In this document: positions 3,732 through 47,561 of the stretch, piece after piece
Layout of the letters: each line of letters opens with the position of its first letter
How positions within the stretch are numbered: the stretch's first letter is position 1
DNA from: Minisyncoccota bacterium
GTDB lineage: Bacteria > Patescibacteriota > Minisyncoccia > Phycocordibacterales > UBA9973
DNA length: 64,000 nucleotides
Assembly: GCA_041648595.1 (NCBI GenBank)
Contig: JBAZOQ010000003.1
Coordinates: 1,042 to 65,041, forward strand
Reading direction: 5' to 3'
Notes under the pieces: generated by a model
What the model was told of the DNA's origin: nothing
Databases searched by the model: none
The model's input: only the letters and a program-made list of their open reading frames with translations
Program-made: the position numbers and the translations under genes

Positions 3732-5408
3732 ATGGAAGAACAAATAGAAGAACATACACCTTATTTAGATAAATATAAACCTTTCTTTTGGATACTTGGA
3801 ATTGGCTTTTTATTATATCTTCCTACTTTATTTTTTAACTTTACATACTTAGATGACAACAACTTAATATTAGAAAATCAATATTTTCTATCAAATATAT
3901 CAAATATATTTCAATCTTTTTCAATTGATGTATTCCACATTTTCAATTCTTCAGCCTTTTATTATAGGCCTCTTTTAACTATTTCATTTATTTTTGATTA
4001 TCAAATAGGAGGAACAAATCCTTTTATGTATCATTTTAGTAATATACTTTTACATATTATCTCTTCTTATTTAATTTTTATATTTTTAACTAAATTAAAT
4101 TACAAAAAAACTTTATCATTTCTATTTTCAATTATTTTTCTAGTACACCCTGTTCTAACTCAAGCTGTTTCTTGGATCCCAGGGAGGAATGATTCTATGC
4201 TAGCAGTTTTTGCTCTTGCTACATTTATATTTTTTATAAAATACATAAAGGAAGAAAAAATAAGTAATCTTATTTGGAGTTTATTATTTTTTGGATTATC
4301 TATTTTTACAAAAGAATCAGGCATAGTAATATTTCCTATAATTCTTTTCTATTTATTATTTATTTTTAAAGAAAAGAAACTTTCATTAAATAAATTTTAT
4401 TTTTTCTTTGGATCAACCATTCTTCTCGGCATTTGGGCTATGTCTAGACATTTTGTACTTAAAGATTCACCTTCTCTTGGTATTGTAGAAATGTTTAAAT
4501 CTATATATTTTAATTTTCCTGCTGTCATACAATTTGCAGGAAAGATATTTTTACCATTTAATTTAAGTGTTCTACCAATTATAGAAGATACTACATTTTT
4601 ATATGGAATAATTTCCATAATTTTATTGACTATAATACTTTTTATTACAAAAACAAAACGTTGGGTTTATATTTTATTTGGAGTTATTTGGTTCTTTGCA
4701 TTTTTATTACCTTCTTTTATACGTCCAAATTCTACATTAGTGGCTGATTTTATAGAACACAGACTTTACGTACCAATAATTGGTATTTTTATATTATTAC
4801 TTGAAACTAATTTCATAAAAAATATTGATTTTAAGAAAAAAACTCATTTAATAATTATAAGCTCTGTACTTATTTTATTTAGTACAATAACGATCACATA
4901 TAGTTTTAATTTTAGTAATAGGTTAGCATTCTGGAATAATGCTGCAAAAAATTCCCCTCACTACCCTCTTGCTCATAGAAATCTAGGTGCTATGGAATAT
5001 TTGGACGGCAACATGGATAATGCAGAAAAAGAATTTAAAATTGCTTTGGAGCTAAACTCGCAAGAAGAAATGGCACACAATAATTTAGGCCTCATATATG
5101 CCAGTCAAAATAAATCAATAGAAGCTGAAGAAGAATATAAAAAAGAATTAGAAAATAATCCATATTATGATAACGCATATTTTAATTTAGGATTATTATA
5201 TTGGCAACAAAAAAAATACGATGAAGCAAAAATCAATTGGGAAAAAACTCTAGAAATTAACCCAAACTATACAGATGCTTTTAATGCACTAATGTTGTAT
5301 CACTATGAACAGAAAAATTATAAAGAAATGACTCTTTATGCAAATGAACTTTATAAAAGAGGAGTACAAATCCCAGCTGAAATAATAGAAATTATAAAAA
5401 CTCAGTAA
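3732..5408 (+). CDS. Multi-pass membrane protein with C-terminal TPR repeats (TMTC/PMT-like putative glycosyltransferase)
   Basis: N-terminal TM bundle with YLDDNN loop, C-terminal TPR-like repeats (NLG…Y…A…); start abuts previous stop. Confidence 0.5.
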   Translation: MEEQIEEHTPYLDKYKPFFWILGIGFLLYLPTLFFNFTYLDDNNLILENQYFLSNISNIFQSFSIDVFHIFNSSAFYYRPLLTISFIFDYQIGGTNPFMYHFSNILLHIISSYLIFIFLTKLNYKKTLSFLFSIIFLVHPVLTQAVSWIPGRNDSMLAVFALATFIFFIKYIKEEKISNLIWSLLFFGLSIFTKESGIVIFPIILFYLLFIFKEKKLSLNKFYFFFGSTILLGIWAMSRHFVLKDSPSLGIVEMFKSIYFNFPAVIQFAGKIFLPFNLSVLPIIEDTTFLYGIISIILLTIILFITKTKRWVYILFGVIWFFAFLLPSFIRPNSTLVADFIEHRLYVPIIGIFILLLETNFIKNIDFKKKTHLIIISSVLILFSTITITYSFNFSNRLAFWNNAAKNSPHYPLAHRNLGAMEYLDGNMDNAEKEFKIALELNSQEEMAHNNLGLIYASQNKSIEAEEEYKKELENNPYYDNAYFNLGLLYWQQKKYDEAKINWEKTLEINPNYTDAFNALMLYHYEQKNYKEMTLYANELYKRGVQIPAEIIEIIKTQ

Positions 5409-5420
5409 AAAATAAAAATT

Positions 5421-5497
5421 AGTGCTTTCTGCAACATACGCTACTTAAAGCTAGTATATTGTTTCCAGGTTGATATGCGAGTTGCAAGAAAGCAACT
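5421..5497. repeat. Repeat family F1 copy 1: conserved core CATACGCTACTTAAAG…GTTGATATGCGAG enclosed by 14-bp inverted repeats; A-run before, T-run after (bidirectional terminator-like)
   Basis: Direct sequence comparison with copies at 9861-9955 and 56612-56678; lies between convergent genes. Confidence 0.6.
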
Positions 5498-5502
5498 AAT
5501 TT

Positions 5503-7191
5503 TTATTTTTTCTTATTAATACAAGCTTTTATAAAAGCTGTAAAAAGAGGATGTGGTGCTAAAGGACGAGCTAAAAACTCTGGATGAAATTGTGTACCAA
5601 GAAAAAATGGATGTTTACTTTTTGGAAGCTCTGCTATCTCCATCAAATGCCCATCTGGAGACCTACCTGAGAACACAAGCCCTTTTGCTTCAAGTAAAGC
5701 TATAAATGCTGTATTCACCTCATAACGATGACGATGCCTTTCTGTTATAAGAGTCGGCCCTTTTTGAAAATTTAAGAACCGACCTAAAGGAGAGGAAACA
5801 TAGGCATTTTTGGCTATGGTATTGTCACGCAAAACTGCTTTATATTCTCCTAAACGCATAGACCCACCATATAAATTATTTTTTAATACTTCTTTTTGTG
5901 ATTCCATCACATCTATTACCATATTTTTAGAATTTGGATTTACTTCTCTTGTATTAGCATCTTTCAATCCTAAAATATTTCGTGCATATTCTATCACCAT
6001 CATCTGCATACCATAACAAAGACCAAAATAAGGAATCTTGTTTTCACGAGCATATTTTATAACATTCAAATTTCCTTCCACACCACGAGAACCAAAACCT
6101 CCAGGAATAATAATACCATCATATTTTTTTAGTTCTTTTAATTTACCTGAATTTTTTTCAAAATCAACAGAACTAAGCCATGTCATAACTGGTTTTCTAT
6201 TTTGTCCAAAACTTGAATATTTTATTGCTTCAATTACAGATAAGTAAGAATCAGATAAAATATAATCCCCCGTTTCAAAATATTTCCCTATCATCGCTAT
6301 TTTTATTTTATCTTTACCATTGTGCGCATGCTTAGCAAAATTTTTCCATTTTCCCCAAGCTTTTTGATCTGGTTTTTTAGAAACAATATTTAAAATATCA
6401 CAAATCTTATCTGAAAGTTTTTCTTTTTCAAAATTTAATGGAATATCATAGATACTATCAACATCTGGAGCAGATATAACTTTATTGACTGGCATATTAC
6501 AAAAAAGTGAAATTTTTTCTTTTCTTTTATTGTCAAGAGGTGCGCTAGCTCTAGCTATCAATATATCAGGTTGAATACCTGAAGCATTGAGCGTCCTCAC
6601 TGCATGTTGAGTTGGCTTAGTTTTCATTTCACCAATTTTTTGTGGAGTCGGTAAATAAGACACCATAACAAAAACGACATCTTTAGGTGAAGAAAGTTTC
6701 ATCATTCTAGCTGCTTCTAGAAAAAGCATATTTTGATATTCTCCAACAGTACCTCCTATTTCAATAACCACAACATCAGCTAAAGCATTCTTTCCTGCCT
6801 CTTTGATACGTCCTATAACTTCAAGAGGAATATGCGGAACGACTTCAACACATTTACCTTTATATTCTAAATTTCTTTCTTTTTCTATAACTGTTTTATA
6901 AACTCGGCCTGTCGTCATATAATTTATTCGAGTCAAATCTATATCCAAAAATCTTTCATAATTTCCCATATCTTGATCTGTTTCATCGCCATCTTTAAGT
7001 ACAAAAACTTCCCCATGTTCTGTGGGGTTCATTGTACCAGCATCAATATTTATATATGGATCAATTTTAATAGAAGTAACTTTCAATCCACGATTTTTTA
7101 AAATAAGCCCTAGAGATGATGAAGTAATGCCTTTTCCGACTCCAGAAATAACTCCCCCTATAACAAAAATATATTTAGTCTGTTTTACCAT
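5503..7191 (-). CDS. pyrG: CTP synthase
   Basis: N-terminal IFVTGGVISGVGKGI-type motif (IFVIGGVISGVGKGITSSS), C-terminal glutamine amidotransferase domain; 562 aa. Confidence 0.93.
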   Translation of the reverse strand: MVKQTKYIFVIGGVISGVGKGITSSSLGLILKNRGLKVTSIKIDPYINIDAGTMNPTEHGEVFVLKDGDETDQDMGNYERFLDIDLTRINYMTTGRVYKTVIEKERNLEYKGKCVEVVPHIPLEVIGRIKEAGKNALADVVVIEIGGTVGEYQNMLFLEAARMMKLSSPKDVVFVMVSYLPTPQKIGEMKTKPTQHAVRTLNASGIQPDILIARASAPLDNKRKEKISLFCNMPVNKVISAPDVDSIYDIPLNFEKEKLSDKICDILNIVSKKPDQKAWGKWKNFAKHAHNGKDKIKIAMIGKYFETGDYILSDSYLSVIEAIKYSSFGQNRKPVMTWLSSVDFEKNSGKLKELKKYDGIIIPGGFGSRGVEGNLNVIKYARENKIPYFGLCYGMQMMVIEYARNILGLKDANTREVNPNSKNMVIDVMESQKEVLKNNLYGGSMRLGEYKAVLRDNTIAKNAYVSSPLGRFLNFQKGPTLITERHRHRYEVNTAFIALLEAKGLVFSGRSPDGHLMEIAELPKSKHPFFLGTQFHPEFLARPLAPHPLFTAFIKACINKKK

Positions 7192-7202
7192 ATTAATTAT
7201 TT

Positions 7203-7272
7203 ATCCGCCTAAATTTTTTAATTTTTTCTAATTTATTGTTTATCTTTATTTTTGTGAAAAATTTTGGTGGAT
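7203..7272. repeat. Repeat family F2 copy 1: ATCCGCCTAAATTTT…(~40 nt)…AAATTTTGGTGGATT imperfect inverted-repeat hairpin
   Basis: Same ends found at 20765-20871 and 63224-63306; variable centre. Confidence 0.6.
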
Positions 7273-8195
7273 TACTTGTTTAAATATTTTCTAGTCGCAA
7301 TAAAACTAGAAATCATTGAAAGAATAACACCTGATAATAAAATAATCATGGAAATCTGAAATAAATTTGAAACATAATAATCATACATATTAAGTCCTAA
7401 AAAGTTAGTCATCTTATTTCCAAGATAAACAGTAACTGGCCAAAAAATTATCAATGTTAAAATAGTCGCAATAATGCCATAAATCGCACCTTCTACCATA
7501 AAAGGTCCACTGACACGTGACTTGCTTGCCCCCACTAAACGCATTACACCTATCTCTTCTTTTGAAATAAAAATAGCTAACCGAATTGTATTAAATGTAA
7601 TAATTATAGAAATAATTATTAAAATTAATGTAATTAAAAAACCTAATCTTTGTGCACCAGATATTATATTATTTAAACGATCTATAACTATCTTATTCTG
7701 ATTATAATTTACTTTATCTATAATAGAAGTAGACCCTAGTACTAATGCACTGTCTCCTTTTAAAAAATTCGCAATACTTTCATATTGAGAAACCTCTCGT
7801 GCTTTCACATTCAAATATCCCCCAAGTGGATTAGAATTTATCTCATCTAATGCAGCAATCGTAGGATAATCATTCTCATGACGTGAACGGAAAAGTTTCA
7901 AAGCTTCTTCTGCACTAACATAAGAAACTTTTTCTACTTCTGGTAAATCCTCCAGAGATTCTTTCAAAGAATTTATTTTAATTTCTGGTGCATCTACAAC
8001 AAAATAAATCGTTACATCAACTTTATCTTTTATTTGGTTAAGTGAAGAATGGAGTACTGCATTCAATAATATAATCGTAGTAATAACGGAGAGAGTAATG
8101 GTGACGACTAATACAGCAGCCCAAGAAATAATTCCACTTCTAGCAAAATTTACAAACCCAGCTTTTATAATTCTTTTTAAGTCAATCATTACCAT
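7272..8195 (-). CDS. ftsX: Cell division ABC transporter permease FtsX
   Basis: 307 aa, N-terminal TM, periplasmic domain, three C-terminal TMs; directly downstream of ftsE. Confidence 0.8.
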   Translation of the reverse strand: MVMIDLKRIIKAGFVNFARSGIISWAAVLVVTITLSVITTIILLNAVLHSSLNQIKDKVDVTIYFVVDAPEIKINSLKESLEDLPEVEKVSYVSAEEALKLFRSRHENDYPTIAALDEINSNPLGGYLNVKAREVSQYESIANFLKGDSALVLGSTSIIDKVNYNQNKIVIDRLNNIISGAQRLGFLITLILIIISIIITFNTIRLAIFISKEEIGVMRLVGASKSRVSGPFMVEGAIYGIIATILTLIIFWPVTVYLGNKMTNFLGLNMYDYYVSNLFQISMIILLSGVILSMISSFIATRKYLNK

Positions 8196-8938: not shown

Positions 8939-9832
8939 TCACAAATTCTTTTCTGCCTCAATGAATATATCTAACTCCCCATTTAAGACCGAATTAATAT
9001 CATTAGTTTCTACCCCCGTACGATGATCTTTTACCATTTTATATGGATGTAATACATAAGAACGAATCTGACTACCCCATTCTATTTCTGTTCCTTTACT
9101 TATTTTCATACTTTCTTCAACTGTCTTTTTTTCTTCTTGCGCTTTTTTAAATATCTTAGCTAAAAGTATAGACATAGCTCTTTCTTTATTCTGTTCTTGA
9201 GAACGTTCGCCTGTAGCATGAACAGAAATATTGATTGGTATATGAATGATTCTCACTGCTGTCTCTCTTTTATTAACATTTTGACCTCCAGGACCACCCG
9301 AACGACTATACTCTATTTTCAAATCATTAGGAGAAATATGAAAATCTTTTTCTTCTAATTTTGAAAATTTTGGCAATACCTCAACTAAAGAGAAAGAAGT
9401 ATGTCTCAATTTTTTTGCATTAAATGGTGAGATGCGAACTAAACGATGCACACCAGATTCATTTCGAAGCATTCCGTAAGGACCCTGGCCGGACGCCTGG
9501 CGTCCGGTTATTTCAAAAGAAACATTCCTATATCCACCATCATCATTTTTATTTTCATGAATAAAAAAAATCCCCCAATTTTTTTTATCAGCATACTTCA
9601 TATACATATTCAAAAGCATATGTGAAAAATCTTCAGCATCGTCTCCTCCTGCACCAGATATTATATTAATTATTGCATTACCTTTATCATACTTACCTAA
9701 ACCTTCTTTCTTATCTTTAAGTTCTGAAATTTTTTTTAATGTTTCTTGTGCTTTATTTTTGTCATTCCAAAAATCTATCTTCTGCGTTTCTGCTTCTAGT
9801 TCTGTTATTTCTTTTTCTAAATTATTTTCCAT
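8939..9832 (-). CDS. prfB: Peptide chain release factor 2 (short form, no programmed frameshift visible)
   Basis: GGQ motif (SGGPGGQNVNK), RF2-type SPF tripeptide (SPFNAKKLRHTSF); 297 aa continuous ORF. Confidence 0.8.
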   Translation of the reverse strand: MENNLEKEITELEAETQKIDFWNDKNKAQETLKKISELKDKKEGLGKYDKGNAIINIISGAGGDDAEDFSHMLLNMYMKYADKKNWGIFFIHENKNDDGGYRNVSFEITGRQASGQGPYGMLRNESGVHRLVRISPFNAKKLRHTSFSLVEVLPKFSKLEEKDFHISPNDLKIEYSRSGGPGGQNVNKRETAVRIIHIPINISVHATGERSQEQNKERAMSILLAKIFKKAQEEKKTVEESMKISKGTEIEWGSQIRSYVLHPYKMVKDHRTGVETNDINSVLNGELDIFIEAEKNL

Positions 9833-9860
9833 ACATTAAATTATGATATATTTTTAAAAA

Positions 9861-9955
9861 AACACAAAGCAATACTTTCTTTGACATACGCTACTTAAAG
9901 ATACTTAATGACGTCAAGTTCGAGTGCGAGTCATAAGAAAGTATTGCTTTGTGTT
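9861..9955. repeat. Repeat family F1 copy 2: 21-bp perfect inverted repeat enclosing CATACGCTACTTAAAG…GTTCGAGTGCGAG; A-run/T-run flanks
   Basis: aacacaaagcaatactttct…agaaagtattgctttgtgtt stem read directly; lies between tRNA-Thr and prfB start. Confidence 0.6.
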
Positions 9956-9966
9956 TTTTTTGCATG

Positions 9967-10039
9967 AGCCGCTGGAAAGACTTGCACTTTCGACCCTCAA
10001 TTTACGAAATTGATGCTCTACTGCCTGAGCTACAGCGGC
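9967..10039 (-). tRNA. tRNA-Thr (anticodon CGU)
   Basis: Manual fold of the reverse complement: acceptor GCCGCTG/CAGCGGC, D arm GCTC-AGGCAGTA-GAGC, anticodon loop TTCGTAA, T arm GAAAG-TGCAAGT-CTTTC; no encoded CCA. Confidence 0.75.
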
Positions 10040-10349: not shown

Positions 10350-10826
10350 TTACTTATCATTAATATATCTAACTTCATTTGAAATCATTTTTTTTGCTTT
10401 AAAATCTTCTCCGAAACTTTTAGGGAGAACGCGGATATTGTCTGCCGGATTTACCCAAACTATTTCAGCAATTTCGTGAGCGTGAGAACGAGCAAGTTTT
10501 TCAGTATTCAAATAATCTTTTCCATTTTTTATCTCAAAGAAAAATTCAATATATTGCTTGCCGTCCGTTTGTGTAAAATTGTTTATATAAAGCAGTTTAC
10601 CTATTTCTGGTTTTACTCCCAACTCTTCAATTATTTCCCGAGACAAACATTCTTTTATATCTTCTCCCCATTCTAAATGACCACCCGGAAGCGCAGCAAA
10701 GCTTGTATCATGAGGATGTCGCACGGCTAAAAGTTTTCCTTCGTGTAAAATAATCGCTCGAACTTTGATAATAATTTTCTTTTCGTTTTCCATAAGTTTA
10801 TTATAACACCTCATAACTCCTGCCAA
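10350..10826 (-). CDS. NUDIX hydrolase
   Basis: Nudix box GGHLEWGEDIKECLSREIIEELGV; close paralog of 40046..40492. Confidence 0.75.
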   Translation of the reverse strand: MAGVMRCYNKLMENEKKIIIKVRAIILHEGKLLAVRHPHDTSFAALPGGHLEWGEDIKECLSREIIEELGVKPEIGKLLYINNFTQTDGKQYIEFFFEIKNGKDYLNTEKLARSHAHEIAEIVWVNPADNIRVLPKSFGEDFKAKKMISNEVRYINDK

Positions 10827-12515: not shown

Positions 12516-12608
12516 AAACCCATCTGTCCTTATATAAACTAAATGAGCAAAATTATGATAATACTCATTGACTTATACCAACCGCTTGGTATACTACTTA
12601 AAGTATCG

Positions 12609-12647
12609 AAAAAGGGGCGTCGACCGTTAGGACGATGGCCCTTTTTC
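12609..12647. terminator. GC-rich hairpin flanked by A-run and T-run (bidirectional rho-independent terminator) after res
   Basis: aaaaaggggcgtcg…cgatggccctttttc. Confidence 0.55.
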
Positions 12648-12711
12648 ATTTGGTAATTCATCTTTATTTTCCAATACTTCTCCATTGTCTTTTTCAACAA
12701 AAACATTAAAA

Positions 12712-20313: not shown

Positions 20314-20766
20314 TTAATTAACTTTAATTCCCTTTTTCTCTTTATTAACAGTAGCAACTTTTGTGACTATTTTTACTTTTTGTGCAGTTAAAATATTTGT
20401 CGCTTTATCAAAAGTCCCAACTACAATTACCTTCTGACCAACAACTAAATCAGATGCAGTAACTATTTTTCCATTTTTATTATATATTGTTCCAACATCT
20501 GTTTTAACTTCTACAGAAGATGTCGTCTTAGCTTTTTTATTTTTCACATCCATTGTAAAACCTGTACTATTTACAGCAGACACGATTCCGACCCTATTAT
20601 GTTGTTTTTTTGATTCTATTTTTTTCTTATCTTTATTTTGTTTTTGATAGGTTTGCTGTACTTTTTTAATACCTAAATCTTGAGGTGAAAAAGCAAAAAC
20701 AGAAGAACCTCCAACTAATAATGACAATGCAAGTGCTCCAGTTACTATTCGTTTTTTATATTTCAT
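20314..20766 (-). CDS. Secreted hypothetical protein (signal peptide, Lys-rich)
   Basis: N-terminal MKYKKRIVTGALALSLLVGGSSVFA signal-like region. Confidence 0.4.
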   Translation of the reverse strand: MKYKKRIVTGALALSLLVGGSSVFAFSPQDLGIKKVQQTYQKQNKDKKKIESKKQHNRVGIVSAVNSTGFTMDVKNKKAKTTSSVEVKTDVGTIYNKNGKIVTASDLVVGQKVIVVGTFDKATNILTAQKVKIVTKVATVNKEKKGIKVN

Positions 20767-20871
20767 CCGCCTAAATTTTATACCAAACTTACTTATCTTT
20801 TAAAGATTATACAGTTGATATAATTGTTAATTAATTTATAATGTCTTCCCTGCCAAAAATTTTGGTGGATT
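20765..20871. repeat. Repeat family F2 copy 2
   Basis: ATCCGCCTAAATTTT…AAATTTTGGTGGATT ends shared with 7203-7272 and 63224-63306. Confidence 0.6.
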
Positions 20872-20950
20872 CATATATTCATTATAATACTAATCATAAA
20901 TGAAATCTTCATGAAGTCTAAATCCCCCTACCCCATGGGTAGGGGAGAAA

Positions 20951-22410: not shown

Positions 22411-22475
22411 GCGCGGACTAGTGGACGAAGTGGGAACTGCAATTCGTAATCATAATGGTTATATTCATATACCAA
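22411..22475. repeat. Repeat family F3 copy A (GCGCGGACTAGTGGACG-AAGTGGGAACTGC…CATAATGGTTATATTCATACC) in the 5' region of the Nramp-like gene
   Basis: Copies at 24773-24858 and 25689-25752. Confidence 0.55.
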
Positions 22476-22570
22476 ATCTTAATAAAGCAATAGTGTAGTA
22501 ATGGTTTGATTTAGTATTATCGAAAAAAACAGACCATCATTTCTGACGGTCTGTTTTGAAACTATTTTAT

Positions 22571-23398: not shown

Positions 23399-23509
23399 AA
23401 TTTTATAATTAAACTAATAATACTTACTAACAAACACATTAATAATAATCTCATTCATGACACACAACCTACTTAAAGTATATCACAGTTTAAATCCAAT
23501 ACACCCGTA

Positions 23510-24584
23510 TGTACAGTTAACCATATGGGGTGACACTTAAGGTAGAATTGGGGTGACAAAGGTTAATCATCTTTAATCATCTTAATTTAAAAGGCGAAAG
23601 CTTAAAAACATTATATGGCAAACAAGAATCAAGGTGCATCGTATCCAAGCAAAGTAAGAGCAAAATGGTATTTCTTGGTAGAGAAAGCAGGTAAAAGCAT
23701 CAATGAAGTTTGTAGAATGTATATGATATCAAGAAAAACATATTACAAATGGAGAAAGAAAGATTTAGGAGATAGAATATATATTCCTAGGAAAGAACAT
23801 CCACAAACTAAAATTAAAGGAGAAGTAAAGATATTCATTTGCGAAGAAAAATTAAGAATTAATTATGGTCCAAGAAAAATGAAATTACTTGTTAAAAGAA
23901 GATTTGATTTAGATATTTCAACTACTATCATTTACAAACTCTACAAAAAGAAGGGATTAATCAGAAGACCACAAAAGAAACTTCCTTGGTATAAACCAAT
24001 TAAAGAAGCTGTAATACCTAAAGTTCCAGGTGATGTTGTGCAAATGGATGCTAAATATATCTGGGAGGACAATACACGCAAATATCAAAGAACATTCATT
24101 GATATTTATACAGGATTTCAATTTGCAACAGTAACTAGCACCATGACAGCTGAAGATACAATTAACGCGTTTCTTGAAGCAGAAGTTAATTTCCAATTTA
24201 AAATTCTTGGAATCCAAACAGATAATGGAAGTGAGAATCGAGGAGAATTTCATCAATATATTGGCAGGTGTGGAATTGCTCATTACTTCATACCAAAATC
24301 TTCACCACAGTGGGATGGAGCAGTAGAGAGAGCACACGGAGTAATTGATCAAGAGTATTATCTTAATCCGACACGAACATGGAAAAGTTTAGAAGAATAT
24401 TTACACTTTTATAATTATGAAAGAATCCATTTAGGAAAATATTTAAATGGTATGATACCGGTCGAGAAACTTAATTATTATTTATCCACAGTGTCACCCT
24501 TGAAGGTTAACTAAACATTAAAGATGATTAACCTTTGTCACCCCAATTCTACCTTAAGTGTCACCCCATATGGTTAACTGTACA
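23510..24584 (+). mobile_element. Insertion sequence (IS481-like), ~1.07 kb, with 58-bp perfect (≈67-bp near-perfect) terminal inverted repeats
   Basis: IRL 23511-23568 is the exact reverse complement of IRR 24526-24583, each with two GGGGTGACA subrepeats; single DDE transposase inside. Confidence 0.8.
23615..24514 (+). CDS. DDE transposase (rve/integrase core with N-terminal HTH; IS481-family-like)
   Basis: D (VQMD), D (TDNGSEN) and E (ERAHG) catalytic-triad context. Confidence 0.8.
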   Translation: MANKNQGASYPSKVRAKWYFLVEKAGKSINEVCRMYMISRKTYYKWRKKDLGDRIYIPRKEHPQTKIKGEVKIFICEEKLRINYGPRKMKLLVKRRFDLDISTTIIYKLYKKKGLIRRPQKKLPWYKPIKEAVIPKVPGDVVQMDAKYIWEDNTRKYQRTFIDIYTGFQFATVTSTMTAEDTINAFLEAEVNFQFKILGIQTDNGSENRGEFHQYIGRCGIAHYFIPKSSPQWDGAVERAHGVIDQEYYLNPTRTWKSLEEYLHFYNYERIHLGKYLNGMIPVEKLNYYLSTVSPLKVN

Positions 24585-24772: not shown

Positions 24773-24858
24773 GCGCGACTTAGTGGACGCCTGTCCGTCC
24801 TTTGGCGGGAAGTGGGAACTGCTATACGAGAGCATAATGGGTATATATTCATACCAAA
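24773..24858. repeat. Repeat family F3 copy B (carries a 20-nt hairpin insertion cctgtccgtcctttggcggg)
   Basis: Alignment to copies A and C. Confidence 0.5.
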
Positions 24859-25688: not shown

Positions 25689-25752
25689 TGCGCGGCTTAG
25701 TGAACAACGTTAGAACCGACATAAAGAATCATAAGGGCTATGTATATATACC
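25689..25752. repeat. Repeat family F3 copy C (more diverged)
   Basis: GCGCGGCTTAGTGAACAACG…CATAAGGGCTATGTATAT. Confidence 0.45.
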
Positions 25753-26059
25753 TGACTTGAGGTCGTATAAAGGAACTGAAGTAAAACGGATCGAAAACAT
25801 TGTAGATTCTGAAATCCTTAATCCCCTTTCAATGATACCAGAATTCGGAGAATCTAAAAAGTAACGTGCTTTTACCCTACACCCCTATGACACTATATCT
25901 CTGCAAAAATACCGCCAGCCATGCACAATTAGAGACGAACTCGGATTATTCCGACCCCCTTGTCATATGGGGATACAGCTACAAAAATACCCCATCTTAT
26001 GTATAGAGTCTGCTACTCGACATTAATCACTAAAATACCCCTATTTATAATGGTTTTAG

Positions 26060-27408: not shown

Positions 27409-27497
27409 TCTACCAGGTAGACCCGAAGGTCCTATGTCAGTTTCCCGACATAACGCGAACAGCGACCCTGATAAAGGGATTACTACGCTGTTCGCGA
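27409..27497 (+). ncRNA. Candidate structured RNA: four consecutive hairpins in a 660-bp ORF-free divergent intergenic region (identity unknown, strand uncertain)
   Basis: ctaccaggtag; gaccCGAAggtc; atgtcagtttcccgacat; gcgaacagcg-[ccctgataaaggg…]-cgctgttcgc (10-bp perfect stem with nested hairpin). Confidence 0.3.
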
Positions 27498-27856
27498 TTT
27501 TACTAGCGCCATGCAAATATAAATATTTGTTTAGGCTCTTATTAAGTTTTACTCACTTTACAATTATACCATCTAGCTATTAAAACAAACAATGGCCTCA
27601 AAAGCTGTAATTTTTTTGAGAAATTTTTTTAGCCTTTGGTTTTTAGAATCCAAGATTTAACCAAAAAACACAAATGGGTACGTTTCTCTAGTACTACTAC
27701 CATATTCAATTTCCAAATAGACAACCCCCCTATCTCACTATTTTTAATACTCAATTATAAATATTTAAAAACTATTTAAGTGAAGCAAATTATTAATAAC
27801 AAAAATGCTTCACAACATGTTGGTCGGCATGAATTATTAATTAATCATTTAACGTT

Positions 27857-40045: not shown

Positions 40046-40492
40046 TTAATTGTGTATATCTATATATCTAACTTTATCAGAGATAATATTTCCTTTTTTA
40101 AAATCTTCCCATAAACCATTGGGTTTGATGGGCGTTGTCCCAGCAGGCTCCAACCAACACACTTCTGCAATTTCATGTGCATGTGTAGTTTTAAGATGCC
40201 CGATATTTAAATAATCTTTTCCATTAGTAATTTCAAAGAAAAATTCAACAGACTGTCTTATCTCTCCATCCATAAAATTATTTATATAAAGCAATCTCCC
40301 AATTTCAGGAATAACCCCAAGCTCTTCAACCATTTCACGCCTTAAACATTCTTTTATATCTTCTTTCCACTCAACATGCCCACCAGGCAAAGCACAAAAA
40401 CTCGTGTCATGTGGATGCTTCACACCCAAAAGCTTACCTTCATAAATAATAATACCCCTTGTTCTAACAACAAATTTTTTATCTTTTTCCAT
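40046..40492 (-). CDS. NUDIX hydrolase (paralog of 10350..10826)
   Basis: GGHVEWKEDIKECLRREMVEELGV; near-collinear similarity to the island NUDIX. Confidence 0.75.
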   Translation of the reverse strand: MEKDKKFVVRTRGIIIYEGKLLGVKHPHDTSFCALPGGHVEWKEDIKECLRREMVEELGVIPEIGRLLYINNFMDGEIRQSVEFFFEITNGKDYLNIGHLKTTHAHEIAEVCWLEPAGTTPIKPNGLWEDFKKGNIISDKVRYIDIHN

Positions 40493-40496
40493 AAAA

Positions 40497-42044
40497 TTAT
40501 TTCTTTTCTTTAGGAGAAACCTCGTCGTCCCCTCCTTCTAATAATTCTAACCCTTTCACTGGACCAAAAGCGTTATTACCTAATTTCCCTTGTATTGATC
40601 CTACAATATTTGCAGTTCCAATAAATATTTTTTCCACTTGCGCATCTCTAACTTTCCAAGATTTTTCAAAAGCTACCCTTTCCTTTGTAATTTGATCTTT
40701 CATTTCTTTATAAGTTTCAACCATTGATTCAACTTGCTGTCTAAATTCATGACTAGTTACATATCCATATAATGTTTCAGCTAAAGTTCCTTGTTTTTCA
40801 GCTTGTGCATTAACTAAAGCAACCTCCAACAGCTGTCTCCTTAATACATGTGAGACAGAGATAGCTAAGGATGGTTTACAAATCCAAACTCCATCCTTAT
40901 TTCCGAAACCTGAAACAGCTTCATCTGGTAATACCATACTTACAATAACTGGAATATGTGCAGCCTCAGCTCTTAAATTTACTTTCAATTTAGGAATCCA
41001 ATCCTTGCCCCAATTTTGCACCCTTTTAGATTCCCATAGTATCACTCCACAAACCTTTCCCGAATTTGATCTTACTTTTTGTCTTACATCTGCCCCCTTA
41101 ACTCCTTTTCCGACTGGTTCGATAATATCTTGCGGAAATGCCTCCTTTAAACTAGCCTCTAGGTCCAATTCTTGCACCTCTCCTTGAAGTTGTTGCGATC
41201 CTTGTTCTGCTTTCCTTTTTGCATCATTTAACTGAGTAATCAAGTCAGCCATTTTCTTTTCACTTTCAAGTTCACGGAAATGATATTCGTCACCTATACG
41301 CTTACTTACTTCATTTTCAATTTTACCCTTTTCTTCTGAAATTTTCCTAGCGACTTCAAGCTCTTGAGTTTTCATTTTTTCATCCAACTCTCTTTCTTTA
41401 TTTAATAGAGATAACTCACGTTTCTGAGCCTCCTTTAGCTTTGCATTTTTTTCTGCAACTTGTTCTTCTAATATTTTTTTTTCTGCTTCTTTCTCTTTTT
41501 CAACATCTTCTAATTTTTTCTGTAATTTTATTGTATCAGTTCCATTTTGTTTAATGGCACGAGTAAAAGCCTCTTCTTCTATACCCTTACGCTCAGCATC
41601 AATTATTTTAGCCTTTTCCAATTCAAAACCCTTTCTCTCTTCTTCAAGTTTTTTTCTTTCCGCGCGAGCCTCAAGAGATTCAGCAGTTGCTTTTTCTAAT
41701 TTCTTATCCTTCTCTTTCATCTGATCCTCTAAAAGTTTAATTTCAGCAGCAGTTTGTTTTTCAGCGGCCACTTGTGCATCTTTCCATAATGCCCTTTTTT
41801 CTATTACAATTTTTTCCGCTACCTTCTTATTTATTTCACTTTGGGCATTTTTCTGCGATTCCTCCAGTTTTGCTTTTTCTTCTGCTATTTCTTTTTTCTC
41901 TTTTGCCATTTCAGCTTCTTTAAGCTTATTCTCTTCACTAATTTCTTTTTTTAGGTTTTCTTCAATTTGATGTGTCAATACATCATCAATTGATATTGCT
42001 GCTTTGCAGTTGGGGCATATAATATTTTTTGTGTCGTTTTTCAT
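40497..42044 (-). CDS. Zn-ribbon + long coiled-coil protein (DUF2130-like architecture)
   Basis: N-terminal CPNCKAAISIDD, ~250 aa E/K-rich coiled coil, conserved C-terminal globular domain. Confidence 0.45.
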   Translation of the reverse strand: MKNDTKNIICPNCKAAISIDDVLTHQIEENLKKEISEENKLKEAEMAKEKKEIAEEKAKLEESQKNAQSEINKKVAEKIVIEKRALWKDAQVAAEKQTAAEIKLLEDQMKEKDKKLEKATAESLEARAERKKLEEERKGFELEKAKIIDAERKGIEEEAFTRAIKQNGTDTIKLQKKLEDVEKEKEAEKKILEEQVAEKNAKLKEAQKRELSLLNKERELDEKMKTQELEVARKISEEKGKIENEVSKRIGDEYHFRELESEKKMADLITQLNDAKRKAEQGSQQLQGEVQELDLEASLKEAFPQDIIEPVGKGVKGADVRQKVRSNSGKVCGVILWESKRVQNWGKDWIPKLKVNLRAEAAHIPVIVSMVLPDEAVSGFGNKDGVWICKPSLAISVSHVLRRQLLEVALVNAQAEKQGTLAETLYGYVTSHEFRQQVESMVETYKEMKDQITKERVAFEKSWKVRDAQVEKIFIGTANIVGSIQGKLGNNAFGPVKGLELLEGGDDEVSPKEKK

Positions 42045-46745: not shown

Positions 46746-47561
46746 ATGCCAGAATTAACCGATATTACAGAGATAGATATATACAAAGAACCAATATATA
46801 GATTGTGTGATTTTTTATTACAAAAAAAGTATTCAACTGAGGGAAGAGGTCTTAACAGACCTTTCTCTTTTCGTGTTAATGAATTAGCTAACATTTTTGA
46901 ACATAGTGGTAACGAAGAAGAAGAAATGAAAAAAATCAAAACTGAATTATACGGATTAAGCACTGAAACTATTATGACCGAAAATGGAAAACAAAATGTT
47001 ATTGAAATACTCAATTTTGAAACTCTAGAATTATTTTTAGAAAACTTTAGAAATAATGTTGAAGTAAGAATTGGATGCACTAGTAAAAATTTGGAAATAT
47101 ATCAAAAAGAACTTAGAAAACGCACTGAAGCACTAAAAAGAAAATTGGGAGCTGTTTCAGTTGTTGCTATTACAAATGGTGGAGCTTCAATCTCTATTGG
47201 AGAAAAAACAATGGAGACATATAGAAGAAGTCTTCGCCTTCTTCCAATTGCACCATATCTTATACTTCTACTTGCGGGTGAAAGTATCCGACTTCCAAGA
47301 AGATTAATATCCATAGATTCTTTTTGCAAGAAATATCATACAGGAGATGCTGACTATAAAAGAGGTGATCCAGTTGATATTAATTTTCTTCAAAAAATCC
47401 TTACATATATCAGATATGGTTCTGGCTGGGAATCAGAAACACTTATTAAAAGAAAAGCAATTCTTGATTCATTAAATGGTCTAAATACAAAATCTCGCTT
47501 AGAAGAAAATTTTGAAACTGATATTTTTTCAGTAGAAAATAACGTTCGGTGGATTCTATAA
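46746..47561 (+). CDS. Hypothetical protein (first gene of the plus-strand integrated block)
   Basis: 271 aa ORF. Confidence 0.3.
   Translation: MPELTDITEIDIYKEPIYRLCDFLLQKKYSTEGRGLNRPFSFRVNELANIFEHSGNEEEEMKKIKTELYGLSTETIMTENGKQNVIEILNFETLELFLENFRNNVEVRIGCTSKNLEIYQKELRKRTEALKRKLGAVSVVAITNGGASISIGEKTMETYRRSLRLLPIAPYLILLLAGESIRLPRRLISIDSFCKKYHTGDADYKRGDPVDINFLQKILTYIRYGSGWESETLIKRKAILDSLNGLNTKSRLEENFETDIFSVENNVRWIL

Follow-up and report, generated by a model that had tools for sequence, protein, structure and literature searches.

What is the sequence that recurs three times, on each occasion within a long hairpin wedged between genes, in a stretch of DNA from a Minisyncoccota bacterium, and why has it been kept there? 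The stretch, hereafter called the window, comprises 64,000 nt (assembly GCA_041648595.1, contig JBAZOQ010000003.1, positions 1,042-65,041, forward strand) and is a low-GC segment of the chromosome of a Paceibacterota/Nomurabacteria-like CPR bacterium, whose named database relatives belong to Ca. Paceibacterota, Pacebacteria or Nomurabacteria. Its genes include pyrG, a release-factor gene, ftsEX, gatCA, htpX, lemA, and four tRNAs. The genomes of CPR bacteria (Patescibacteria) are very small, with closely packed genes, and repeats and regulatory RNA are believed to be scarce in them. A literature search for such an element in the CPR/Nomurabacteria group found no description.

The repeat family, designated F1, has three copies in the window, all in the same orientation: c1 at approximately 5407-5511, c2 at 9856-9960, and c3 at 56595-56694. 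A preliminary description, made from the letters of the window, had reported three copies, and all of them are present at or around the places that it gave. However, it had taken a conserved core of about 50 nt as the unit, with stems of 14-21 bp, whereas the repeated unit is the entire imperfect palindrome of approximately 100-105 nt, composed of two arms of 26-29 nt each and an asymmetric, comparatively G+C-rich centre of about 45 nt. The arms are AU-rich, are part of the repeated sequence, and terminate in A- and T-runs, which bears out the flanking runs described earlier. On the plus strand, the 5′ arm, centre and 3′ arm occupy approximately 5407-5435, 5436-5480 and 5481-5511 in c1 (a variant subtype), 9856-9885, 9886-9929 and 9930-9960 in c2, and 56595-56620, 56621-56664 and 56665-56691 in c3. 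The 26-nt arms of c2 are 100% complementary and form the longest perfect inverted repeat of the window; the stem of c3 is the most degraded of the copies (21 of 29 pairs are Watson-Crick). F1 is non-coding, with no ORF conserved across its copies. No solo arms were found elsewhere in the window, and an extension of its contig by approximately 9 kb (L247) contains no additional copy.

Exact matches to the 16-mer CATACGCTACTTAAAG lie at 5435 and 9885, and a match with a single mismatch lies at 56620; when up to three mismatches are allowed, 0.62 chance matches are expected, and the observed count was reached in 0 of 100 shuffles. Another match, at 52715, sits within the coding region of a recombinase and was discarded as chance. 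The 3′ motif of the preliminary description, read as GTTnGAnTGC, fits c2 and c3 but not c1, which reads GTTGATATGC. The shorter motif CTACTTAAAGTAT had been placed at 12586 and 23469; it is exact at 23469, but its other exact site is 12594, and 0.24 occurrences with at most one mismatch are expected by chance in the window. Both sites were rejected as members of F1, as they come without the rest of the element or a comparable hairpin. As a separate observation, a strong promoter-like site at approximately 12570-12650 on the plus strand (TTGACT-N16-TGgTATACT) contains CTACTTAAAGTAT and is directly followed by the hairpin GAAAAAGGGGC...GGCCCTTTTTC; judging from its sequence, it could be a tiny sRNA of about 50 nt or an orphan promoter-terminator pair.

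The three copies occupy different genic settings. c1 lies between two convergent genes, namely a PMT_2/TPR glycosyltransferase-like gene on the plus strand (3732-5408), which ends at c1, and pyrG (CTP synthase; 5503-7191, minus strand), which ends inside it: the A-run of c1 is flush with the stop codon of the former (5406-5408), and the stop codon of pyrG (5503-5505) falls within the T-rich arm. On the gene strand (minus), c2 follows tRNA-Thr(CGU) (9966-10039, minus strand), the transcription unit directly upstream, after 5 nt and ends 23 nt before the ATG of the release-factor gene (PCRF/RF-1 domain; 8939-9832, minus strand) directly downstream. c3 overlaps the stop codon of an htpX-like M48 peptidase gene (56687-57586, minus strand), which lies upstream on the gene strand, and ends 37 nt before the ATG (56557) of the downstream gatC (56285-56557, minus strand), with TGCTATAAT located 6 nt before that ATG. 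The release-factor gene is short (297 aa, with the PCRF profile matched only from position 95), and its relatives are likewise short (291-351 aa).

Copies of F1 also occur in related genomes. An exact-motif scan of 185,579 species genomes gave one true match, in Ca. Nomurabacteria nzgw486 (L078), and approximately 100 others that were due to chance, while the same scan of JGI metagenomes gave seven matches and three true contigs (L107, L109 and L113); none was found in the viral contigs and the phage and plasmid collections scanned. A covariance model (R1), built from seven F1 copies and run over approximately 127 kb, added four copies in L107 and L109 and found nothing else above noise. The resulting 11 copies score 81-116 bits (three in the window, one in L078, three in L107, three in L109, and one in L113) and represent seven independent loci in five genomes, eight of the copies being located in four Nomurabacteria/Paceibacterota genomes other than that of the window. 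L107 and L240 both derive from Ca. Nomurabacteria GW2011_GWE1_32_28, and L242 is the region of the L113 copy; expressed as density, there are three copies in approximately 74 kb of the window genome, three in the 21.7 kb of L240, and one in the 20.8 kb of L242. The L078 copy is located just upstream of a release-factor gene orthologous to the 8939-9832 gene of the window.

In the 11-copy alignment, the arm consensus is AAAATATAAAATAGTACTTTTTTCGAC ... GTCGTGAAAAAGTAGCTATTTTATATTTT, and invariant columns make up approximately 40% of the arms vs 45% of the centre, whose consensus reads ATACGCT..AAGATA..TAATGAnnTCA..GTT..GTGCG. The look of variable stems around a conserved core derives mainly from the diverged outer stem of c2. 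Over the 29 predicted pairs, 93.4% of the cells of the 11 copies are paired, compared to 42-54% when the partners are slid. Compensatory (double) changes occur at 10 of 26 stem pairs, with 26 double-change cells observed vs 7.2 in shuffles, none of which (0 of 500) attains the observed number. The preliminary description had made its family depend on further copies and on covariation supporting a conserved structure: both were found, the former as the eight copies detected with the covariance model in other genomes, the latter in the stem. In the centre, no covariation was detected either by an all-against-all column test or for the named inner helix. The stem may extend further (CGC/GCG plus ACU/AGU), but this part, at 86% paired, does no better than shuffles (116 of 500 reach it), and folds in the gene sense repeatedly lengthen the stem via CGCACU/AGU(A)GCG. 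One or two conserved bulged bases are present on one arm only, and in the variant subtype (c1 and the L113 copy) the middle of the centre is different. Folding z-scores range from -4.4 to -9.4 on both strands for every tested copy except c3, whose scores are not significant (-0.3 on the plus strand and -1.7 on the minus strand). Mismatches in the 317 stem cells comprise 13 G.T (eight of which are at one conserved position), 11 A.C, and 10 others; picking the functional strand from wobble pairs fails with such balanced counts, and the balance of mismatch types agrees with an element that acts on both strands or as DNA.

Comparison of gene junctions indicates how F1 came to its sites. In L240/L107 and in L109, the three consecutive gaps between yceG, RNase T, mnmA and mgtC are approximately 120 nt long and contain one F1 copy each, whereas the same gaps in the relative L241 measure 7-18 nt, with no R1 match in L241, and two comparable gaps in the P0124 contig (10-28 nt) are empty. 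Similarly, the spacing between fmt and hpf is 103 nt, including an F1 copy, in L242/L113, whereas these genes overlap by 4 nt in relatives with Fmt identities of 80% and 88%. Thus, at four junctions one lineage carries F1 where relatives have an empty site (gaps of 7-28 nt, or stop codons that overlap), and this pattern of filled and empty sites identifies F1 as a MITE/REP-like insertion that was gained and is patchily distributed. Of five lineages, two have a copy upstream of the release-factor gene: the release factor of nzgw486 is just 75% identical to that of the window, yet an F1 copy is found at the same place, whereas no copy was detected in the 77 kb searched of L114-L119, whose release factors are 79-81% identical to that of the window. 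c1 and the L113 copy are 94% identical at non-orthologous loci, and the L078 copy is closer to c3 than to its positional counterpart c2 (79 vs 76% overall, and in the arms too), although its centre is nearer to c2 than to c3. Such gain, loss and patchy distribution is the pattern of a mobile or proliferating repeat. No unambiguous target-site duplication was recognized at the AT-rich junctions (A/T runs, stop codons) of the compared genomes, which are strongly diverged. A transposase with matching ends was not found in the window, whose only insertion sequence (23510-24584) has unrelated inverted repeats of 68 bp, and neither Y1/RAYT nor integron integrase was detected among the 40 window ORFs scanned; the only recombinases of the window are the rve transposase, with its unrelated ends, and a serine recombinase.

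Several other repeats and elements were noticed alongside F1. The insertion sequence at 23510-24584 is complete: its 1,075 bp include an HTH+rve transposase (23615-24514) and are bounded by perfect terminal inverted repeats of 68 bp. A link of F1 to it via CTACTTAAAGTAT at 23469 was rejected, since the motif lies outside the insertion sequence and the ends of the latter are unrelated. A 50-nt direct repeat (GAAGTGGGAACTGC..CATAATGG..TATACCAAA) has three intergenic copies around the insertion sequence (22427-22476, 24809-24858 and 25706-25755). The plus-strand gene block at 46746-53551, within an otherwise minus-strand region, adjoins tRNA-Asp/tRNA-Met (53512-53706) and encodes an AAA_25 protein, a fragment of a Pol-beta thumb, and a large serine recombinase, the last of which ends where the tRNA genes lie; it looks like an integrated element. 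Two NUDIX hydrolase genes (10363-10802 and 40062-40501) are intragenomic paralogues with 72-74% DNA identity over approximately 440 nt. In L118, one of the relatives lacking F1, a different long AU-rich hairpin (7556-7652; 25-nt arms and a GC-rich 35-nt apex) occupies the same position upstream of the release-factor gene, but it is single-copy in 18.5 kb and was rejected as a second repeat family. Another repeat family, a leader of approximately 70-130 nt, is present in the window at 7190-7285, 20755-20886 and 63233-63303 (minus strand), as well as in L113 at 152-263 and 2179-2307, upstream of unrelated genes (pyrG, ORF 20314-20766 and an ftsW-like gene at 62013-63158 in the window; def and hpf in L113). 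Its ribosome-binding region AAAATTTAGGCGGAT(G) can pair with the upstream ATCCACCAAAATTTTT, and it looks like a conserved leader that may sequester the ribosome-binding site.

F1 fits exactly into the space between a stop codon (or a tRNA) and the -10 box of the next gene, a TATAAT-like box that comes after the element, 6-8 nt ahead of the downstream ATG. In either direction, the hairpin is succeeded by a T-rich tail. At five of five co-directional loci, gene direction is the reverse of the CATACGC reading; given p of about 0.06, three adjacent loci, and seven independent loci in all, this orientation bias is only suggestive. Both copies of the variant subtype (c1 and the L113 copy) lie between convergent genes. 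As a more general observation, TATAAT or TGnTATAAT only 6-8 nt before the ATG, without an obvious Shine-Dalgarno sequence, is found in many genes (such as those at 56557 and 9832 of the window, at 1151 of L078, and in the 7547 and 9458 region of L240), and suggests that leaderless mRNAs may be common in these genomes.

The element is also well preserved. Between L107 and L109, copies that occupy the same site share 79-92% identity, while the flanking genes show 69-84% nucleotide identity and 51-64% identity at four-fold degenerate sites; F1 has therefore been kept at least as well as coding DNA. The centre alone is 70-96% identical between species, vs the same 51-64% at four-fold sites, and between the window and nzgw486 the corresponding values are 89% and 51%.

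Considering these features, we find it moderately probable that F1 is a mobile palindromic intergenic repeat that has been retained as a bidirectional terminator or insulator hairpin. In some Nomurabacteria/Paceibacterota (CPR) genomes it has spread by insertion at places where very little space separates the genes, and transcription of either strand would produce a long hairpin followed by a U-run, and this hairpin would separate an upstream gene or tRNA from a downstream gene having its own -10 box just past F1. On the gene strand, the element would need no promoter of its own: after the upstream stop codon or tRNA, the transcript would fold and end in the T-run. The symmetry of A-run, hairpin and T-run is that of bidirectional terminators. 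The repeat family, its hairpin with compensatory changes and its insertion are established by the comparisons above; we infer both termination by F1 and its mode of mobilisation, as well as any role of the conserved centre.

Among the options raised in the preliminary description, a REP/BIME-like element or a terminator is thus favoured by the dispersal of F1, the compensatory changes in its stem, the filled and empty sites, its intergenic position, and its A/T-run ends, but in neither case in the canonical form: neither the GTAG head of REP/BIME, nor a RAYT gene among the 40 window ORFs scanned, nor the short GC-rich stem and 3-8-nt loop of a canonical intrinsic terminator was found. With its AU-rich stem and a loop of approximately 45 nt, F1 is non-canonical as an intrinsic terminator. 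A consensus terminator scan did not call it, detecting only a 6-bp sub-hairpin inside c1 at 5480-5497, and other genes in the window use short GC-rich terminators (for example, at approximately 20920-20945). Conservation of the centre without covariation is not explained by a plain terminator. A bolder proposal, to which we give a rather small probability, is that the asymmetric centre of about 45 nt functions as a module recognized by a protein or by the machinery copying the element, in which case F1 would represent a new class of insulator RNA/DNA under purifying selection.

Different explanations give another weight to the same observations. F1 may be a selected cis-acting RNA module in the intergenic region or 3′-UTR of the gene-sense transcript, its mobility being secondary; candidate roles are an RNase III-type processing or stability hairpin and a conserved apical domain that binds a protein. 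The identity of the centre, which exceeds that of four-fold degenerate sites, the conserved bulged bases on one arm, the uniform orientation relative to genes at the five co-directional loci, and the repeated gene-sense extension of the stem all agree with such a module, and a duplex of 26-29 bp suffices for RNase III. However, the centre lacks covariation, its inner helix is matched by many shuffles, the wobble counts pick no strand, the distribution is patchy with empty sites in the closest relatives, the flanking genes share no common function, and no Rfam family matches; on balance we consider this explanation unlikely. A free-standing gene is considerably harder to accommodate. Each copy would then be an independent sRNA gene read in the CATACGC orientation, whose body and terminator are both formed by the hairpin. 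In favour of this, the CATACGC strand has a stable hairpin with a T-run after it, and one stem position has a conserved U.G and another U-A/U.G, which are readable on this strand only. Yet the coding region of the neighbouring gene begins 5-40 nt upstream in this orientation, which leaves no space for a promoter; no conserved promoter is present and a promoter scan finds none, three copies occur within 2 kb in L240, and A.C mismatches, which speak for the opposite strand, are equally numerous. The small structured RNA envisaged in the preliminary description is, as a gene of its own, therefore highly improbable. The likeness of its 3′ half to a tRNA T-arm did not hold up either: ARAGORN and Rfam revealed no tRNA-like feature, and the T-loop positions read TTCGA in c2 and TTGAT, TTAGA, TTGGA or TTCGT in other copies, without a flanking 5-bp stem. 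Rfam 15 gave no family at the gathering threshold for F1 in the whole window, nor in permissive scans of c1 and c2, which returned only sub-threshold, generic long hairpins (plant miRNA precursors and plastid 3′ UTRs) on both strands. Elsewhere in the window, a LOOT RNA (RF03000) was recognized at 27419-27537 on the minus strand with 67.9 bits, above its gathering score.

Two further explanations were weighed. F1 could be a single-stranded hairpin site for a strand-specific recombinase or HUH enzyme (attC-like or IS200/IS605/REP-RAYT-like), with an orientation set by the direction of replication instead of transcription. This would account for extrahelical bases restricted to one arm of an imperfect palindrome, for the one absolute orientation of all window copies (including c1 between convergent genes), for balanced mismatch types, which are expected of DNA rather than of one RNA strand, and for precise insertion between genes. 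We nevertheless regard it as quite improbable, considering that AAC/GTT core sites are absent from the stem base, that no IntI, Y1 or RAYT gene is present in the window, and that F1 is much longer than REP or IS200 hairpins. Alternatively, F1 might be a terminator-plus-promoter cassette, in which read-through RNA folds into the complete hairpin and terminates, and the loop contains a gene-strand promoter (TTGACG-N18-TAGCGT) that restarts transcription for the downstream gene. A cassette of this type would explain the orientation bias, the conservation without covariation, and the tolerated insertion in operon-like gene strings, and TTGACG is present in c2 and in two of the L109 copies (L109b and L109c). 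But in other copies the -35 hexamer decays to CTGATT, CTGGCG or CTGGAA, the -10 TAGCGT agrees at just three of six positions and fails in a consensus scan, and better TATAAT boxes lie downstream of F1, which makes this explanation very unlikely indeed. More generally, a nested or upstream sigma-70 promoter was rejected, as the scan made no call and the hexamers are not conserved.

To date, several families of intergenic palindromes have been described in bacteria with which F1, as the mobile hairpin that we favour, can be compared. Correia/NEMIS elements of Neisseria and ERIC/IRU elements of enterobacteria are MITE-like, non-coding intergenic palindromes of about 100-150 bp with long inverted-repeat arms, which are co-transcribed as long hairpins and are reported to affect termination, processing or stability. 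F1 resembles them in its size, non-coding nature, long arms, dispersal between genes, and filled/empty sites, but shows no sequence similarity to them, has few copies (about one per 7-25 kb sampled), has no identified target-site duplication or partner transposase, varies compensatorily in its arms, and resides in a CPR host. REP/BIME elements (REPIN) measure 20-40 nt, share a conserved GTAG head, are present in hundreds of copies together with RAYT transposases, and have been linked to termination, mRNA stability, and hairpin-based single-strand recognition; like F1 they are imperfect palindromes after genes, also between convergent ones, whereas F1 is approximately 100 nt long, has an asymmetric 45-nt centre, and lacks both the GTAG head and a RAYT gene in the window. 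Canonical terminators have 5-14 GC-rich pairs and a loop of 3-8 nt and are not repeated sequences. F1 shares with bidirectional intrinsic terminators the order of A-run, hairpin and T-run and the location between convergent genes or transcription units, but differs from the canonical form in its 26-29 AU-rich pairs, its conserved centre, and its absence from the consensus calls. Integron attC sites and Vibrio cholerae repeats are imperfect palindromes of approximately 60-140 bp with RYYYAAC/GTTRRRY core sites at the stem base. They resemble F1 as palindromes between genes with a single orientation and extrahelical bases on one strand, whereas the stem bases of F1 are A/T runs, no tyrosine/integron integrase is present in the window, and the flanking genes are housekeeping genes rather than cassettes. 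With regard to MITEs, F1 is a non-coding sequence well within the approximate limit of 500 bp, with terminal inverted repeats, dispersed copies, and filled and empty sites, but no parent insertion sequence with matching ends was found within the window. Judging by these likenesses, F1 belongs in kind with the intergenic palindromes of the Correia/ERIC/REP type.

For genome annotation, the F1 hairpins call for caution, since they overlap stop codons and may be mistaken for sRNA genes. If the centre is indeed a recognition module, F1 would be a structured, orientation-specific insulator that can be dropped between tightly packed CPR genes, and not a decaying selfish repeat. Being wedged between stop codons and the next promoter and yet conserved, F1 would show how CPR bacteria gain transcription-unit boundaries, and would offer a handle on terminator architecture and the organisation of gene units in uncultivated bacteria.
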